DNA from: Escherichia coli
GTDB lineage: Bacteria; Pseudomonadota; Gammaproteobacteria; Enterobacterales; Enterobacteriaceae
Assembly (NCBI RefSeq): GCF_048403405.1
Contig: NZ_CP183132.1
DNA: 6,055 nucleotides
Strand: one strand, 5' to 3'
The notes below the pieces were generated by a model. The model made no database searches and had not been told where the DNA came from. It saw nothing but the letters and a program-made list of their open reading frames with translations. The position numbers were made by a program, and so were the translations under genes. Positions 1 to 6,055 of this stretch are shown here, piece by piece (positions within the stretch are counted from its first letter, which is position 1; the number at the start of each line of letters is the position of its first letter).

Positions 1-2
1 TC

Positions 3-31
3 TTGAGATCCTTTTTTTCTGCGCGTAATCT
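3..31 (+). promoter_or_regulatory. RNAII (replication preprimer) promoter: -35 TTGAGA (3-8), 17-bp spacer, -10 TAATCT (26-31)
   Basis: The block tcttgagatcctttttttctgcgcgtaatctgctgc matches the pMB1/pBR322 RNAII promoter as I recall it. The hexamers and spacing are read directly. The native upstream context is visible at the second copy (5634-5662). Confidence 0.8.
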
Positions 32-40
32 GCTGCCTGT

Positions 41-144
41 AAACGAAAAAACCGCCTTGCAGGGCGGTTTGATCGAAGGTTAAGTCAGCTTGCAGACTGC
101 TTAACCAGGTAACTGTCTTATGCGAGACGAGTCACCAAAATTGT
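41..144 (-). ncRNA. RNAI: RNAI antisense copy-number control RNA (about 100-105 nt)
   Basis: It is antisense to the RNAII 5' end. The 5' end is at 144 (minus strand ACAATTTTGG, compare pMB1 ACAGTATTTGG), 6 nt downstream of its -10. The 3' end is the stem-loop 70-49 followed by a minus-strand T-run (TTTTTTCGTTT), which acts as an intrinsic terminator. It has the three stem-loops typical of RNAI. Confidence 0.85.
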
Positions 145-150
145 TCTTCT

Positions 151-180
151 AGTGTAGCCGCACTCCGGCAGCCACTTCAA
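151..180 (-). promoter_or_regulatory. RNAI promoter: -35 TTGAAG (180-175), 18-bp spacer, -10 TACACT (156-151)
   Basis: The plus-strand agtgta...cttcaa has the same hexamers and the same 18-bp spacing as the pBR322 RNAI promoter I recall (ctagtgtagccgtagttaggccaccacttcaag). Confidence 0.8.
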
Positions 181-604
181 GTACTCTCTAAATATCTCGC
201 ACATGACTTTTACCAATGGCTGCTGCCAGTGGCGCTTTGTGGTGTCTTTTCCGGGTTGGACCCAAGAGAACAGTTACCGGAGAAGGCGCAGCAGTCGGGC
301 TGAACGGGGGGTTCCTGCATACAGCCCAGCCCGGAGCGAACTGCCTAAGTCGCCCCGAGATACCAGAAGACGTGAGCTATGAGAAAGCGCCACGTGTCCC
401 GTAAGGGAGAAAGGCGGAAAAGGTATCCGGTAATCGATATGGCGGGAACGTGGGGGCGCAGGAGGGAGCGATTCACCGGAAACGGTGATGATCTTTAAGC
501 CACGTCGGGTTTCGCCACCGCTGGCGGATTTCATGGTTGAGCCGCAAGGCTCCCACAGATGCACCGAAAAAGTGTCTGTTTTGTGAAGTCCGTCAGGGGG
601 GCGG

Positions 605-625
605 AGCCTATGGAAAAAGCGCCTC
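605..625 (+). other. oriV: RNA-to-DNA transition point of the ColE1-type origin (approximate)
   Basis: ggagcctatggaaaaa is conserved with pMB1, where the origin maps in the A-run (pBR322 coordinate about 2535). Here the run is at 614-618. Confidence 0.7.
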
Positions 626-734
626 CGGCGCGGCCTTTCCCGGGGTTTCGTTTTTTGCGTACATGTTCTTTCCTGGTTTATCCCCGGGTTCTGTGGATAA
701 CAGGGTTAGCGTTTTTGAGAAAGGAGAGTCCGCT

Positions 735-800
735 CGCCGCAGCCGAACGACCGAGCGTAGCGAGTCAGTGAGCGAGGAAGCGGAAGAGCGCCTGAACTGG
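735..800. other. Conserved post-origin block, possibly the primosome assembly (PriA/n-prime) site region
   Basis: cgaccgagcg.agcgagtcagtgagcgaggaagcggaagagcgcctg is nearly identical to the pBR322 segment downstream of ori. It contains GAAGCGG (777-783), which I recall as part of n-prime recognition sites. The functional assignment is from memory only. Confidence 0.3.
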
Positions 801-869
801 CATTTTCTCCTTACGCATCTGTGCGGCATTTCACACCGGACATGGCGCACTTTTCATACAATCCGCACT

Positions 870-960
870 GATGCCGAATGGTTAAGCCAGTATACACTCC
901 GCTATCGCTACGTGACTGGGTCAGGGCTTCGCCCCGACACCCCAAAGGTCAACGGCCTGA
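870..960 (-). other. oriT: bom / oriT of a MOB-HEN (ColE1-type) mobilisation system; putative nic between 887 and 886 on the minus strand
   Basis: gttaagccagtatacactccgctatcgctacgtgactgggtca (881-923) is almost identical to the pBR322 bom segment. The minus strand reads CTGG/CTTA (890-883), which I recall as the ColE1 nic sequence. The extent and the exact nic position are recalled, not derived. Confidence 0.7.
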
Positions 961-1035
961 CGCGCCCTGGCGGGCTTGTCTGCTCCCGGCATCCGCTCAC
1001 AGACAAGCTGTGACCGTCTCCGGGAGCTGCATGTG

Positions 1036-1227
1036 TCAGCGGTTTTCACCGTCATCCCCGAAGCGTGCGAGGCAACTGCGGTAAAGCTCATCGGCGTGGT
1101 CGTGAAGCGATTCACAGATGTCTGCCTGTTCATCCGCGTCCAGTTCGTTGAGCTTCTCCAGCAGCGTTAATGTCTGGCCTCTGATGAAGCGGGCCATGTT
1201 AAGGGCGGTTTTTTCCTGTTTGGTCAC
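1036..1227 (-). CDS. rop: Rop/Rom, the RNAI-RNAII kissing-complex stabilising protein (63 aa, GTG start)
   Basis: The last 63 codons of the 87-aa ORF read VTKQEKTALNMARFIRGQTLTLLEKLNELDADEQADICESLHDHADELYRSCLARFGDDGENR. This is essentially pBR322 Rop with S to G at residue 17 and a C-terminal L to R change. The GTG at 1227-1225 is preceded by ggaggcatca, as in pBR322. The upstream in-frame ATG at 1299 gives an extension not seen in Rop. Confidence 0.95.
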   Translation of the reverse strand: MTKQEKTALNMARFIRGQTLTLLEKLNELDADEQADICESLHDHADELYRSCLARFGDDGENR

Positions 1228-1258
1228 TGATGCCTCCGTGTAAGGGGGGGTTCTGTTC

Positions 1259-1615
1259 ATGGGGGTAATGATACCGATGAAACGCGAGAGGATGCTCACG
1301 ATACGGGTTACTGATGATGAACATGCCCGGTTACTGGAACGCTGTGAGGGTAAACAACTGGCGGTATGGATGCGGCGGGTCTGCCTGGGTGAGCCGGTTG
1401 CCCGTTCCGGGAAGCTGCCGACACTGGCACCGCCGTTACTGCGTCAGCTGGCCGCCATCGGGAATAACCTTAACCAGACAGCGAGGAAGGTGAACAGCGG
1501 GCAGTGGTCTTCCGGTGACCGGGTTCAGGTGGTGGCCGCACTGATGGCCATCGGGGATGAGCTGCGCCGGCTGCGTCTGGCGGTCAGGGAACAGGGGGCG
1601 CGGGATGATAGTTAA
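1259..1615 (+). CDS. mbeC: MbeC/MobC-family relaxosome accessory protein (ribbon-helix-helix)
   Basis: MKRERMLTIRVTDDEHARLLERCEG forms an RHH-type N-terminus, and AAIGNNLNQTARKVN is the MobC-family motif. The first ~100 nt of this gene survive beside rop in pBR322. The start is ambiguous among the in-frame ATGs at 1259, 1268 and 1277. ATG 1259 has a G-run (1244-1250) 8 nt upstream. The 3' end overlaps the mbeA start by 11 nt. Confidence 0.85.
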   Translation: MGVMIPMKRERMLTIRVTDDEHARLLERCEGKQLAVWMRRVCLGEPVARSGKLPTLAPPLLRQLAAIGNNLNQTARKVNSGQWSSGDRVQVVAALMAIGDELRRLRLAVREQGARDDS

Positions 1616-3170
1616 GTTTCATGCCAGGGGAAAAGGTGGTGGCAGTGGTCCGGTTGATTACCTGCTGGGAAGGGAGCGTAACCGGGAAGGGGCAACGGTG
1701 CTTCAGGGGAATCCGGAAGAGGTCCGGGAACTCATCGATGCCACGCCATTTGCGAAGAAATACACGTCAGGTGTTCTGTCGTTCGCGGAGAAGGAGCTGC
1801 CGCCTGGAGGGCGTGAAAAAGTGATGGCGAGCTTTGAGCGTGTACTGATGCCCGGTCTCGAGAAAAATCAGTACAGCATCCTGTGGGTGGAGCACCAGGA
1901 CAAGGGACGGCTTGAGCTGAATTTTGTCATTCCGAACATGGAGCTACAGACCGGAAAACGCCTCCAGCCGTACTACGACCGGGCAGACAGGCCGAGAATT
2001 GATGCCTGGCAGACGCTGGTGAATCACCATTACGGTCTGCATGACCCCAACGCCCCGGAGAACCGCCGGACGCTGACCCTTCCTGATAACCTGCCGGAAA
2101 CGAAACAGGCGCTTGCTGAGGGCGTCACACGCGGGATAGACGCGCTTTACCATGCCGGAGAGATAAAAGGCCGTCAGGATGTGATTCAGGCGCTCACAGA
2201 GGCGGGGCTTGAAGTGGTCAGGGTGACGCGAAGCAGTATCAGCATTGCAGACCCGAACGGCGGGAGGAATATCAGACTGAAAGGAGCGTTTTATGAGCAA
2301 TCTTTTACAGACGGGCGCGGAGTTCGAGAAAAAGCTGAAAGAGAGAGCCGAATCTACAGAGAAAATGCTGAACGACGAGTTCAGGAAGCTCGAAGAATCT
2401 GTAAACAGGGAACTGACCTCAAACGAATCTTTAATCAGGAACGCTATCAACGACCATACAACAGCCCTGAAAGAACTGCTGGAGAGGTATCAGAAAACGA
2501 CCGTCGATACGATGGACGCGCACTGGAAAACCGTACTGAAAATGAGCGTGAAACGCTGGCTGTGGCTGATTATCGTCTCAGTACTGATGTTTGCCACGAC
2601 CGGGAGTCTGCTGTGGTACCAGGGCATGAAGATAAACGCGAATATGAATATTCTCCGCGAGCAGAAAGAGAGTCTGGAGAAGCTGAACGCGAAGACATGG
2701 GGCGTGCGTTATCACGAGGACAGCAACGGACGTTTTCTGGTGTTGCCGAAGGGGATGAAAGCCGAAACGAACTGGACGAAGGACAACGGCAAACTGAACG
2801 CAGTGAGACTGGTGCAGGAGTGACAGAGCATGACGGAGCTGGAAAGACATTTGCTGAACGCATTAGAGCAACTGCAACAGGACTATATGCAGCGGCTGAA
2901 CGAATGGGAGAACGCCTTCGTGGAATTGCAGAAAATGTTTTCGCTTACGCAACGGGACAACGCGATGCTGAACGGGCGAGTCATGCAGTTGAGTCAGCAG
3001 GTGCAGCACTTGAGCGAGCGGACAGAACGCTTGAGCCAGTTATACAGCGAGAACAGGAGATAAGGGATGAACGGCTGATGCAGGAACGCGAACATGAGTT
3101 ATCTCTGGAGCGGGAGCGTCAGCCGGAAATCCAGGAGCGGACACTGGATGGCCCTTCGCTGGGATGGTGA
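1605..3170 (+). CDS. mbeA: MbeA/MobA relaxase, MOB-HEN family (521 aa from ATG 1605)
   Basis: MIVKFHARGKGGGSGPVDYLLG carries the catalytic Tyr19 (codon 1659-1661). LWVEHQDKGRLELNFVIPN gives His97, Glu104 and Asn106, the HEN motif described for ColE1 MbeA. The ORF-track start at 1557 adds 16 residues that overlap mbeC. ATG 1605 matches the ColE1 N-terminus. Confidence 0.95.
   Translation: MIVKFHARGKGGGSGPVDYLLGRERNREGATVLQGNPEEVRELIDATPFAKKYTSGVLSFAEKELPPGGREKVMASFERVLMPGLEKNQYSILWVEHQDKGRLELNFVIPNMELQTGKRLQPYYDRADRPRIDAWQTLVNHHYGLHDPNAPENRRTLTLPDNLPETKQALAEGVTRGIDALYHAGEIKGRQDVIQALTEAGLEVVRVTRSSISIADPNGGRNIRLKGAFYEQSFTDGRGVREKAERESRIYRENAERRVQEARRICKQGTDLKRIFNQERYQRPYNSPERTAGEVSENDRRYDGRALENRTENERETLAVADYRLSTDVCHDRESAVVPGHEDKREYEYSPRAERESGEAEREDMGRALSRGQQRTFSGVAEGDESRNELDEGQRQTERSETGAGVTEHDGAGKTFAERIRATATGLYAAAERMGERLRGIAENVFAYATGQRDAERASHAVESAGAALERADRTLEPVIQREQEIRDERLMQEREHELSLERERQPEIQERTLDGPSLGW
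2293..2823 (+). CDS. mbeB: MbeB/MobB mobilisation protein, nested in the +1 frame of mbeA (176 aa, one TM segment)
   Basis: AGGAG (2282-2286) lies 6 nt before the ATG. The N-terminal half looks coiled-coil, followed by the hydrophobic segment RWLWLIIVSVLMFATTGSLLWY. Position and size match the known ColE1 mbeB nested inside mbeA. Confidence 0.8.
   Translation: MSNLLQTGAEFEKKLKERAESTEKMLNDEFRKLEESVNRELTSNESLIRNAINDHTTALKELLERYQKTTVDTMDAHWKTVLKMSVKRWLWLIIVSVLMFATTGSLLWYQGMKINANMNILREQKESLEKLNAKTWGVRYHEDSNGRFLVLPKGMKAETNWTKDNGKLNAVRLVQE
2830..3063 (+). CDS. mbeD: MbeD/MobD small mobilisation protein, nested in mbeA in the same frame as mbeB (77 aa)
   Basis: CAGGAG (2815-2820) lies 9 nt before the ATG, which starts 7 nt after the mbeB stop. 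The sequence is heptad-like and helical (LLNALEQLQQDYMQRLNEWENAFVELQKMF). The position matches ColE1 mbeD, which I recall being linked to entry exclusion. Confidence 0.7.
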   Translation: MTELERHLLNALEQLQQDYMQRLNEWENAFVELQKMFSLTQRDNAMLNGRVMQLSQQVQHLSERTERLSQLYSENRR

Positions 3171-3231
3171 AACCATGAAAAATGACGTGTTCAGTGGATT
3201 AAGGCGGGCTAATGTGGCCTGTAGCATCTGG

Positions 3232-3258
3232 TTGCATAGGTATTCATGCGGTTAAAAT
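3232..3258 (+). promoter_or_regulatory. Pcer-like promoter: -35 TTGCAT (3232-3237), 15-bp spacer, -10 TAAAAT (3253-3258)
   Basis: The hexamers are near-consensus with an unusually short 15-bp spacer. This matches the published description of ColE1 Pcer as I remember it. The promoter overlaps the candidate ARG box. Confidence 0.6.
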
Positions 3259-3264
3259 TTATCA

Positions 3265-3345
3265 GGTGCGATCGCGGCAGTTTTTCGGGTGGTTTGTTGC
3301 CATTTTTACCTGTCTGCTGCCGTGATCGCACCGAACGCGTTTTGG
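3265..3345 (+). ncRNA. rcd: Rcd-like small RNA (dimer-induced cell-division checkpoint RNA), ends approximate
   Basis: It lies downstream of the Pcer-like promoter. A long hairpin pairs ggtgcgatcgcggcag (3265-3280) with ctgccgtgatcgcacc (3317-3332): 16 bp with one G-U. It is followed by the palindrome aacgcgtt and a T-run (3340-3343). Confidence 0.5.
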
Positions 3346-3346
3346 C

Positions 3347-3375
3347 GGTGCGTACAATGCGACGTTATGGTAAAT
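3347..3375 (+). other. Xer core: XerC arm GGTGCGTACAA (3347-3357), central region TGCGACG (3358-3364, 7 bp), XerD arm TTATGGTAAAT (3365-3375)
   Basis: Both arms are identical to the ColE1 cer arms (GGTGCGTACAA-TTAAGGGA-TTATGGTAAAT). The central region differs in both sequence and length. Confidence 0.85.
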
Positions 3376-3465
3376 GGAGCGGATTTTCAGGAAGGAGTGA
3401 TACTAACAACTCGAACACTGTGCAAATAATGATTTTTTTAAAATATCGGTAACGATAATAAATTA

Positions 3466-3494
3466 TTTCGTTTTACGCCGGTAATAAATATAAT
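3466..3494 (+). promoter_or_regulatory. Candidate promoter for the cargo operon: perfect -10 TATAAT (3489-3494) with only a weak -35 (TTTCGT 3466-3471 at 17 bp)
   Basis: This is the only consensus -10 in the AT-rich leader upstream of the first cargo gene. TTTACG (3472-3477) is a better -35 but lies only 11 bp away. The call is weak because AT-rich DNA produces such hexamers by chance. Confidence 0.3.
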
Positions 3495-3543
3495 GTAGTT
3501 TCAGTATATAAAAAAATATATGAGGTGTCTTGTGGGAGCTTTC

Positions 3544-4596
3544 ATGAATCTTCAACAACGTATAAATAAACTACCACAATTATCATCCAGTTTTTCATTT
3601 GGAAAAGATATTGATAATATTCATTCATTTATCTTTAACGAAACTTCTAAAGATAAAATTGAAGATTTACTAAGAAAATGGGTGTCAGGCAATCAGCCCT
3701 GTGTATTTGGTAAATTGGCAAGCAAGAAAATTAAAGGGCTTGATTTCCATTTATCTATTGTAAATAGCCCCCAACTATATAATGATGATGGTCATTTGTT
3801 TGATTTTTTGCGTAATGAAAGAGTTCGTTTTAAAGAACGCGCAAGAAGAGGAGAGGTCAGTGCGCATCTCATTTATTTTATTCATCCACAACTTGCCTTT
3901 GCTCGTCCATCAGAAGAGTTAGTGGACATACAAAAATATATTTGTTCGCTGCATATGCCAGAGTGCTATCCAATAAAAGAGGATGTTATTTATACTGAAA
4001 GCGTACCATTTCAGGATAAAGATGGGCTAAAAATATATAAGGCTGGTGTTAATGTTTTTTACTCTTCTGCTCATAGAACAAGAAATCATGATAGAAGAAT
4101 ACCAGGGGGAATACTTATTTCTGTAAATGCCCCGGGGCATTTTATGAGGCTGGCGATAGAAAAAGGTTTCTATAAAGATCAAGAACAAGCGTTAGCGGAT
4201 ATTCGTAACATGACTATTCAGTCTGTTGGTAAGGGTGGGTATTCACATCCGGAAGGGATTTCTACAACATGGCATTCAGAATCTAATTTGGATCGTTTTG
4301 GATGCCCAGTGCACACCGGTAATAGTTCTTATTACAGCGGTTTTTATCATACTGATGTATTAATTCCAGGAGAATTAACTAAGGATGAAAGATTGCTCCA
4401 TGAAATAGAAAATAGTGATCCAATGATCTTCAACTGGAATGTATTGTTTTATGTTTCATTAGAAGAGTTTCCTATAGATGATCCTTATTATGGAGAGTTT
4501 ATTGGTATTCCTGTAGATGATGCATCTATGTTTTTTAACTCCTTTCAACCAAGGAAATTTGAAAACAAACCCCTTTATGAGAAAGAGGATGATTAA
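3544..4596 (+). CDS. Uncharacterised soluble 350-aa protein (cargo gene A), possibly a metal- or heme-dependent enzyme
   Basis: A long ORF in AT-rich DNA. GGGAG (3534-3538) lies 5 nt before ATG 3544. Alternative in-frame starts are ATG 3520 and GTG 3532. There is no signal peptide or TM segment. The protein is His-rich and has four Cys. Motifs include NQPCVFGK (Cys53), C134-x2-H-x3-C141 (CSLHMPEC), H177-RTRN-H182-DRR and GCPVH. I cannot confidently recognise a family. Confidence 0.85.
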   Translation: MNLQQRINKLPQLSSSFSFGKDIDNIHSFIFNETSKDKIEDLLRKWVSGNQPCVFGKLASKKIKGLDFHLSIVNSPQLYNDDGHLFDFLRNERVRFKERARRGEVSAHLIYFIHPQLAFARPSEELVDIQKYICSLHMPECYPIKEDVIYTESVPFQDKDGLKIYKAGVNVFYSSAHRTRNHDRRIPGGILISVNAPGHFMRLAIEKGFYKDQEQALADIRNMTIQSVGKGGYSHPEGISTTWHSESNLDRFGCPVHTGNSSYYSGFYHTDVLIPGELTKDERLLHEIENSDPMIFNWNVLFYVSLEEFPIDDPYYGEFIGIPVDDASMFFNSFQPRKFENKPLYEKEDD

Positions 4597-4597
4597 T

Positions 4598-5464
4598 ATG
4601 ATTAAAGGAATGCTTTTTGCTTTTTTAGCAGCGTTCTCATGGGGGGCAGCTATCGTAATGAGCAAAAAAGGAGTTGAAGAACTAGATGCCGGAGGGGTGT
4701 TTTTCTGGCAGATTTGTAGTGCAGTAATACTATCTTGGATAGTTCTTTTTATAAAAAGAAAAAAACTCCCATTAAACTCAAAAGCGATACTTGCTTATGC
4801 GACAGGCGTTTTTGAACCATTCTTAGCGTATACTTTTACACTCTACGGACTTTATTTTATTTCAGCAGGAAGCGCATCAATTATTTTTTCACTTGAATCA
4901 GTGTTTATATTGGTGTTGTCTGTTCTTATTTGCTCAGTTAAAATTAATTCCCCGCAATATTTTATATTGTTCCTTATAGGTGCAATTGTTGGCAGTATTT
5001 TGGTAGCCTTGCCAGACATCAGTAATGGATCGAATAATATTGTTGGATATTGTCTTGTTGTTGCCGGTGTGTTATCGGCAGCATTTTATGTTGTTATATC
5101 GTCTCGCCTTATTAAATCGTTTGAGCCTATCACATTATTGAGCGGACAGTTGACATTCTCCCTTATACTGTCATCGCTCTTTATTTTTATATCTAAATCA
5201 TCAATTTATCTTCCGTTGGAATCCGTGATTATTGTTTTTTCATCTGGAATATTACAATATTTTTTAGCTTTTTGTTTTTACTTGAACTCCTTGCGTTGGC
5301 TCCCAGTTCATTTGGCAGGGATAATGTTGTACTTTATTCCGCTAGTTGCATTATTTTTGTCATGGTTGTTTTTGGATGAACAATTCACATTCTTACAGGG
5401 GGTAGGATTTATTGTAACTGTGCTAAGTGTATATTTTCTTAACAGAAAATACTCAGAGGAGTAA
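4598..5464 (+). CDS. DMT-superfamily (EamA-like) permease, 288 aa, about 10 TM segments (cargo gene B)
   Basis: ATG 4598 follows the upstream TAA (4594-4596) by 1 nt, with AAGAGGA (4582-4588) 9 nt upstream. The N-terminus GMLFAFLAAFSWGAAIVMSKKG is typical of EamA domains. I count ten hydrophobic segments arranged as two five-TM halves. The ORF-track start at 4517 adds 27 residues overlapping gene A and is unlikely. Confidence 0.9.
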   Translation: MIKGMLFAFLAAFSWGAAIVMSKKGVEELDAGGVFFWQICSAVILSWIVLFIKRKKLPLNSKAILAYATGVFEPFLAYTFTLYGLYFISAGSASIIFSLESVFILVLSVLICSVKINSPQYFILFLIGAIVGSILVALPDISNGSNNIVGYCLVVAGVLSAAFYVVISSRLIKSFEPITLLSGQLTFSLILSSLFIFISKSSIYLPLESVIIVFSSGILQYFLAFCFYLNSLRWLPVHLAGIMLYFIPLVALFLSWLFLDEQFTFLQGVGFIVTVLSVYFLNRKYSEE

Positions 5465-5631
5465 CATTCTGTTCAGGATTGCCCCCCGGCCTCCATCGAT
5501 ACCGTGCCAAATGCACGTAAAAAACGGGAGCGTTTCTGGTGTCGGAATGTAACCAAGGGGGTCAGAGGCGCGCTAAAACGCTCTCAGGGGAGTCAAATAG
5601 AGACGTTTGTAACAAAAAGATCAAAGGATCC

Positions 5632-6055
5632 TCTTGAGATCCTTTTTTTCTGCGCGTAATCTGCTGCCTGTAAACGAAAAAACCGCCTTGCAGGGCGGTT
5701 TGATCGAAGGTTAAGTCAGCTTGCAGACTGCTTAACCAGGTAACTGTCTTATGCGAGACGAGTCACCAAAATTGTTCTTCTAGTGTAGCCGCACTCCGGC
5801 AGCCACTTCAAGTACTCTCTAAATATCTCGCACATGACTTTTACCAATGGCTGCTGCCAGTGGCGCTTTGTGGTGTCTTTTCCGGGTTGGACCCAAGAGA
5901 ACAGTTACCGGAGAAGGCGCAGCAGTCGGGCTGAACGGGGGGTTCCTGCATACAGCCCAGCCCGGAGCGAACTGCCTAAGTCGCCCCGAGATACCAGAAG
6001 ACGTGAGCTATGAGAAAGCGCCACGTGTCCCGTAAGGGAGAAAGGCGGAAAAGGT
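5632..6055. repeat. Terminal redundancy: an exact second copy of 1-424 (RNAII promoter, RNAI, 5' part of RNAII) caused by linearising a circle
   Basis: A base-by-base comparison of 5632-6055 with 1-424 shows identity. The offset of 5631 also maps ORF 216-404 onto 5847-6035. Confidence 0.95.

Follow-up and report, generated by a model that had tools for sequence, protein, structure and literature searches.

In the 6,055-nucleotide stretch of Escherichia coli DNA analyzed here (RefSeq assembly GCF_048403405.1, contig NZ_CP183132.1; hereafter, the window), which carries a ColE1-type plasmid, the backbone and the cargo meet at the core of a cer-like site. Judged by its sequence, this is an unexceptional multimer-resolution site of the cer type. 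The explanation that we favor, with a probability of roughly 70%, is that the plasmids of this family exchange modules through XerCD resolution of joined plasmids, with such a site as the fixed point of crossover, and that the cargo begins at the site for this reason. The evidence consists of the anatomy of the site, the sharpness of the junction across the family, the mosaic combinations of flanking DNA, and the distribution of the spacer between the two Xer arms.

Anatomy of the cer-Like Site

As shown in Table 1, the core consists of an 11-bp XerC-binding arm, the central region (spacer) TGCGACG, and an 11-bp XerD-binding arm, which agrees with the definition of a cer-type core, namely, two 11-bp arms separated by 6–8 bp. 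The core of ColE1 (NC_001371.1), located at 3909-3938, reads GGTGCGTACAA-TTAAGGGA-TTATGGTAAAT. Direct reading and comparison with this sequence bore out what the first-pass annotation had described, that is, two arms identical to those of ColE1 cer and a 7-bp central region unlike the 8-bp ColE1 spacer. The core agrees with the Xer arm consensus at 22 of 22 positions, while the other positions of the plasmid reach at most 16 and the best of 100 shuffles reached 14–17; the match is thus beyond chance. Because the 7-bp spacer replaces the 8-bp TTAAGGGA, the site is classified as a cer-like variant and not as cer sensu stricto.

On the XerC side, the core is preceded by approximately 220 bp homologous to the accessory sequence of ColE1 cer, including a putative ArgR box; approximately 180–200 bp are typical of a cer-type site. 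The accessory region is approximately 90% identical to that of ColE1, it contains the same ArgR-box stretch and Rcd hairpin, and the orientation of the site and its place downstream of mbeD are also the same. In the alignment, ColE1 (NC_001371.1) has the stretch ttgcataggtattcat without any change, and this stretch is the putative ArgR box together with the putative Pcer promoter. The promoter scan was limited to spacers of 16–18 bp, and the putative Pcer, with its 15-bp spacer, could therefore not appear in it.

The RNA fold of 3262-3346 has an energy of −44 kcal/mol (z = −5.9), and none of 200 shuffles was equally stable. Since a Rfam scan of the whole window returned no match to an Rcd family, the Rcd element was judged by folding and by the alignment with ColE1; the conserved sequence and the stable hairpin at 3265-3332 point to its presence. 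With this anatomy, the site would be expected to resolve plasmid dimers in dependence on XerC, XerD, ArgR, and PepA.

Sharpness of the Junction across the Plasmid Family

The comparison of the window with ColE1 gave a single aligned segment, 1..3375, with 84.6% identity, which ends exactly on the last base of the XerD arm, where similarity had been said to stop. In contrast to the accessory side, the right flank of the window is unrelated to the exc/colicin region of ColE1. The GC content changes from 0.50 (3201-3400) to 0.275 (3401-3600) over the same region.

The segment 3080-3620 matched 1,095 records of PLSDB. Among the listed plasmids without the cargo of the window, the match ends at 3375-3378 or, in a class with a different spacer, at 3358. 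At least seven unrelated cargoes follow the identical core, including DUF3800, two restriction-modification (R-M) systems, Abi, AbiEii/PP2C, and others. Five whole plasmids with the identical core, which are pETEC_5 (DUF3800), pSB13 (R-M), an Abi plasmid, an Eco29kI R-M plasmid, and a Klebsiella plasmid (AbiEii, PP2C), diverge from the window straight after the XerD arm, and their left side is approximately 92–97% identical over the aligning cer segment in three of them and far more divergent in the other two.

The position of the break was determined from 48 right-flank classes. Pairs of unrelated flanks shared 0, 1, and 2 leading identical bases in 805, 239, and 55 cases, respectively, compared with 836, 209, and 52 expected by chance. 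The leading matches follow the chance expectation, which indicates that the sequences part immediately beyond the XerD arm, from the first base onward. The replicon edge upstream of the RNAII promoter was used as a control boundary, and the breakpoints there scatter over 0–20 bp with several modes. Homology to other ColE1-type replicons resumes approximately 20 bp upstream of the −35 box of the RNAII promoter; the point of resumption is 5613-5615 in most loci, mostly 5614/5615, and 5597 or 5622-5627 in others. The sharp junction is one-sided.

As a separate observation, several unrelated right flanks (L011, L053, L101, L107, L137, and others) contain a terminator-like GC hairpin with A/T runs, e.g., AAAAAGCCCCCGGTGGGGGCTTTT, within 10–20 bp of the XerD arm, which suggests that the cargo is often insulated from transcription leaving cer.

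Mosaic Combinations on the Two Sides of the Core

The DNA on the left and right of the core occurs in different combinations. The accessory lineage of the window, defined over 60 nt at 80% identity or more, pairs with 6 spacers and 16 right flanks. Even at 95% identity or more over 100 nt, it still pairs with three spacers and at least six right flanks. Some pairs of sites have right flanks that are 95–100% identical beside accessory DNA that is only 56–70% identical.

The spacer appears to be linked to the right flank. Among pairs of sites that agree in the right flank and diverge on the left, the spacer is shared in 12 of 20 pairs, and the remaining 8 are one-base relatives of TTAAGGGA; where the left side is the same and the right flank is unrelated, it is shared in 3 of 24 pairs (Fisher p = 0.0014).

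Commonness of the 7-bp Spacer

The exact 33-mer around the core of the window occurs in 154 PLSDB records and the ColE1-type 34-mer in 652. A pattern scan for ColE1-type arms with any spacer of 6–8 bp found 28 genome loci and at least 120 metagenome stretches. The spacers of 128 metagenome sites were TTAAGGGA (74), TGCGACG (15), TAAGGGA (9), and many rarer ones, where TGCGACG is the second commonest spacer between ColE1-type arms. Natural sites with the 7-bp spacers TAAGGGA, TGAGACG, TAAGGGG, TAAGTGA, TGGGACG, and others have the same arms and spacing as the window and differ in the spacer sequence. The suggestion that a 7-bp spacer is unusual is contradicted by these counts, and a review describes 6–8 bp as normal for the central region of such sites (PMC5357621).

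In the literature searched, no description of the TGCGACG spacer or of 7-bp central regions was found. The site of ColA and the nmr site of NTP16 are presumably cer-like sites with 7-bp spacers as well. Recombination between cer and nmr in vivo is attributed to Zakova and Szatmari (1995) in a later paper (PMC7315355).

The first-pass annotation had also considered that the junction would be coincidental if the same central region turned out to be common among sites with unrelated flanks. TGCGACG is indeed common with unrelated flanks, but the conclusion does not follow, because this combination makes the junction the norm of the family and not a coincidence.

The pattern scan also returned cer-like sites with ColE1-type arms and TTAGnnnG spacers (L003 7015-7044, L006 3183-3212, L027 5316-5345, L026 434-463, and L020 352-381). 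The contigs that carry them are large and probably chromosomal; they come from Scandinavium and Dryocola, and one is labelled Chryseobacterium. The sites share a conserved right flank, CTCATTTGTTATGGnCAATGCCTGCTAAGAGCG, with a second TTATGG-like motif, and may belong to an integrated element that uses Xer.

Proposed Mechanism of Module Exchange

At cer, XerC exchanges one pair of strands to form a Holliday junction, which is resolved by other functions of the cell, and the recombination is strongly biased to intramolecular resolution (PMC5357621). In the proposed mechanism, two different plasmids that share backbone DNA would first be joined. Homologous recombination within their common replicon or mobilization (mob) DNA would be the simplest way, and intermolecular Xer recombination a rarer one. 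The directly repeated cer sites of the mixed dimer or cointegrate would then be resolved by XerCD with ArgR and PepA, with XerC exchanging strands at the edge between arm and spacer, here 3357/3358, and a second crossover would lie in the shared backbone. The hybrid products would carry the mob and cer accessory DNA of one parent and the spacer, XerD arm, and cargo of the other. The formation of a mixed dimer by homologous recombination is the simplest route to the joined intermediate, because the plasmid has a single Xer site and cer favors intramolecular resolution. This route would produce one sharp junction, at cer, and leave the position of the second variable, which agrees with the observations.

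The first-pass annotation had read the junction as the trace of a Xer-mediated swap of modules. The sharp junction in 48 flank classes, the ragged control boundary, and the mosaics agree with this reading, from which we infer that Xer, and not another process, made the junctions. The position of the crossover has to be revised: since the spacers tend to go with the right flank, a crossover at 3357/3358 is more likely than one at 3375. All compared sites have the same XerD arm, and the break therefore becomes visible only at 3375/3376. An exchange at the edge between XerC arm and spacer would fit both the linkage of the spacer and the class of matches ending at 3358.

Several points weigh against the exchange at cer. 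Direct Xer fusion of two plasmids should be rare because cer favors intramolecular resolution. Similarity to another cer lineage persists for approximately 26 bp beyond the XerD arm, up to the start of the AT-rich DNA near 3402, so that the AT-rich genes may have entered near 3402 by a separate event. The linkage between spacer and right flank, which appears also with looser clustering (24 of 30 pairs with the same right flank compared with 27 of 84 with the same left side), is only suggestive because the pairs are non-independent and the numbers are small. Breakpoints inside the arms are invisible, since the scan demanded exact ColE1-type arms. Finally, no very recent recombinant pair, nearly identical on both sides of the core, was identified among the compared sites.

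A broader form of the exchange model, to which we give somewhat less than even odds, is that the cer core is a general docking point for cargo in ColE1-type and neighboring small plasmids, with the spacer inherited with the cargo side. TGCGACG would then mark the lineage of the right-hand donor and would not be a mutated ColE1 site. Inheritance of the spacer with the cargo would imply exchange by XerC alone at the edge between arm and spacer, followed by non-Xer resolution, and the spacer types may define partly separate exchange groups.

Alternative Explanations

The junction could be a by-product of selection, where cargo is replaced through illegitimate recombination or through deletion and insertion at any point downstream of cer and only plasmids with intact cer survive, so that over many events the shared sequence shrinks to the functional edge. 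We regard this as unlikely, although it is the strongest of the alternatives. The right boundary of the cargo also lies at a functional edge, approximately 20 bp upstream of the −35 box of the RNAII promoter, without any known site-specific recombinase, and the window remains homologous to another lineage for 26 bp past the arm, which indicates that not every event took place at the arm. However, erosion should give ragged breakpoints such as those at the replicon edge (0–20 bp), whereas the 48 flank classes show no sharing above chance. Selection also leaves unexplained that the spacer changes with the right flank and that identical right flanks stand beside accessory DNA of 56–70% identity.

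The second alternative is that the 7-bp spacer makes the site a functionally distinct Xer site, with, for example, a different order of strand exchange, different Holliday-junction processing, or a loss of resolution selectivity, and with an unusually active capture of genes. Spacer length does matter at Xer sites, where dif has 6 bp and cer has 8 bp (PMC5357621), and altered topological specificity is the point for which Summers (1989) is cited in PMC7315355. TGCGACG sites are joined to many cargoes, as described above. In that 1989 work, hybrid cer sites with 6-bp spacers reportedly lose resolution selectivity. Against a distinct site stand the frequency and diversity of 7-bp spacers among natural sites with ColE1-type arms, whose central regions normally span 6–8 bp, the stable maintenance of the plasmid in many hosts, and the number of flank classes, 16 for TTAAGGGA and 7 for TGCGACG, which gives no sign of extra activity. 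The sequence data give no support for a changed reaction pathway at the 7-bp spacer, and we consider this alternative improbable.

A mobile, self-contained nature of the cargo, whether as a cassette between two Xer sites as in pdif modules or as an insertion borne by a transposon or insertion sequence (IS), is largely refuted and very improbable: the sharp drop in GC content and the paralogue of the conserved gene pair on IncF plasmids, whose proteins are 75% identical and which adjoins IS1, would fit such a module, but the plasmid has one Xer-like site, with the other candidates at the level of shuffles (at most 16 of 22), and the nucleotide homology to the IncF locus is confined to the coding region 3550-5452, with none in the leader 3403..3543. 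The Xer-bracketed (pdif-type) module was rejected because the scan of the plasmid contained no second XerC/D site; likewise, the scan of the whole plasmid with the arm consensus showed no Xer-like site at the right end of the cargo (5465..5614). The insertion of a transposon or IS was rejected because no repeats pair the edges, neither terminal inverted repeats nor target-site duplications being found to bracket 3376-5614, and because no transposase or integrase was found among the open reading frames of the window.

Comparison with Known Systems

The cargo of pMB1, the EcoRI R-M operon, also starts directly at the core of cer (PMC7315355). Hybrid cer sites that arise from recombination of cer-like sites, and cointegrates made by XerC/D, are discussed in the same study. 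Unlike in the window, the −35 box of the cargo promoter in pMB1 (TTAAGG) sits in the 8-bp spacer, and TGCGACG contains no such hexamer. The promoter scan of the window found no convincing promoter that spans the core or reads from the core into the cargo, and only a 9/12 match at 3403-3430.

The evolution of ColE1-type plasmids by recombination at the origin of transfer (oriT) and cer/Xer sites is credited to Zakharova (2002) and, for small qnrB19 plasmids, to Tran (2012) in PMC8683028 and PMC6764390. The model has in common with the window that a Xer site forms the boundary of a module in small ColE1-type plasmids; it differs in that the second boundary of the window is the replicon edge and not oriT, and is ragged without a second site. 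In the pdif (XerC/D) modules of Acinetobacter, Xer sites likewise delimit exchangeable cargo, but two Xer sites bracket the module there, whereas the window has one site with accessory sequences.

Plasmid Layout and Cargo

Bases 1-423 of the window recur at 5633-6055, which indicates that the molecule is a circle of about 5,631 bp and that the window runs past its starting point. The molecule is a widespread, mobilizable 5.6-kb plasmid of the ColE1 type: 119 PLSDB records span at least 80% of the window, and many are 100% identical, from E. coli (including strain JJ1886, NC_022662.1), Salmonella, Klebsiella, and Shigella. The gene order on the + strand is the ColE1-type replicon, rop, mbeC, mbeA, mbeB, mbeD, cer, the AT-rich two-gene block, and the replicon again. 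RNAI, on the minus strand at 43-143, is the sole Rfam match in the whole window apart from its wrapped copy. The coordinates of the features around the junction are given in Table 1.

Table 1. Features of the cer-like site and the cargo block in the window.
Feature	Position	Strand	Basis and remarks
cer accessory region (putative ArgR/PepA-binding part, assigned from homology)	3123..3346	+	90% identity over 3123-3375 to ColE1-type cer loci; column alignment with ColE1 NC_001371.1
Putative ArgR box overlapping putative Pcer promoter (TTGCAT, 15-bp spacer, TAAAAT)	3231..3258	+	read by eye
Rcd-like long hairpin within cer	3265..3332	+	RNA fold; sequence conserved with ColE1
XerC-binding arm GGTGCGTACAA	3347..3357	+	identical to ColE1
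7-bp central region TGCGACG	3358..3364	+	read directly; common variant
XerD-binding arm TTATGGTAAAT	3365..3375	+	identical to ColE1; homology to other plasmids stops at 3375-3378
Short GC-normal flank	3376..3402	+	21/27 identical to the sequence right of cer in small Rep-protein plasmids (spacers CGGGAG/TACGGGAG)
AT-rich cargo leader, specific to plasmid lineage	3403..3543	+	GC 0.275; a single promoter-like match, weak, at 3403-3430
Cargo gene 1, 350-aa protein of unknown family	3544..4596	+	
Cargo gene 2, EamA/DMT transporter	4598..5464	+	Pfam EamA, E = 4.6e-44
Lineage-specific non-coding stretch, right end of cargo block	5465..5614	+	homology to other ColE1-type replicons resumes at 5597-5627

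The short flank beside the XerD arm resembles that of small Rep-protein plasmids, where the cer flank leads into the region of the replication initiator. This flank, found at L061, L091, L092, L094, L096, L128, L138, and L007, is conserved across five spacer variants and three accessory lineages. The pairing of the two cargo genes is conserved in other genomes.

A variant of the plasmid (L034; NZ_CP083896.1, 7,250 bp) has a duplication of approximately 1.6 kb over part of the rop-mob segment, and the annotation of its transporter gene is split into two pieces. On a Klebsiella sp. plasmid of 17,520 bp (NZ_CP170103.1; L001 and L023), two copies of cer lie exactly 5,840 bp apart; since 17,520 = 3 × 5,840, the record seems to hold three units of a 5.84-kb plasmid, and this trimer may be real or may have arisen in the assembly.

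ColE1-type cer also occurs on short contigs (L002, L005, L012, L014, L017, L018, L021, L022, L024, L025, and L028) of genomes labelled Rhizobium, Corynebacterium, Devosia, Allobacillus, Varibaculum, Pseudomonas, Hymenobacter, Bacillus, and Bradyrhizobium, and the sites of L005 and L018 are identical to that of the window plasmid. These contigs are most likely contamination of the assemblies by enterobacterial plasmids or vectors. In L025, parts of the window plasmid are joined to ColE1-type cer in a manner that looks like an assembly of mixed plasmids, and this contig was not used as evidence.

Biological Implications

The observation that the cargo begins at the cer core is correct, and the feature is ordinary: a typical cer-like variant with a common spacer, at a junction position that is shared by the family and has an existing explanation. 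Recombination at cer/Xer and oriT in ColE1-type plasmids is an already published idea and is not new. The site matters little alone: it is a routine stability element, and the cryptic plasmid that carries it is very common. The outer end of the XerD arm provides a base-precise boundary between backbone and cargo, which is useful in the annotation of small plasmids, and the type of spacer may help to trace the lineage of the cargo donor. The present analysis adds quantitative sequence support to the existing model in which small multicopy plasmids acquire defence, resistance, and other genes.
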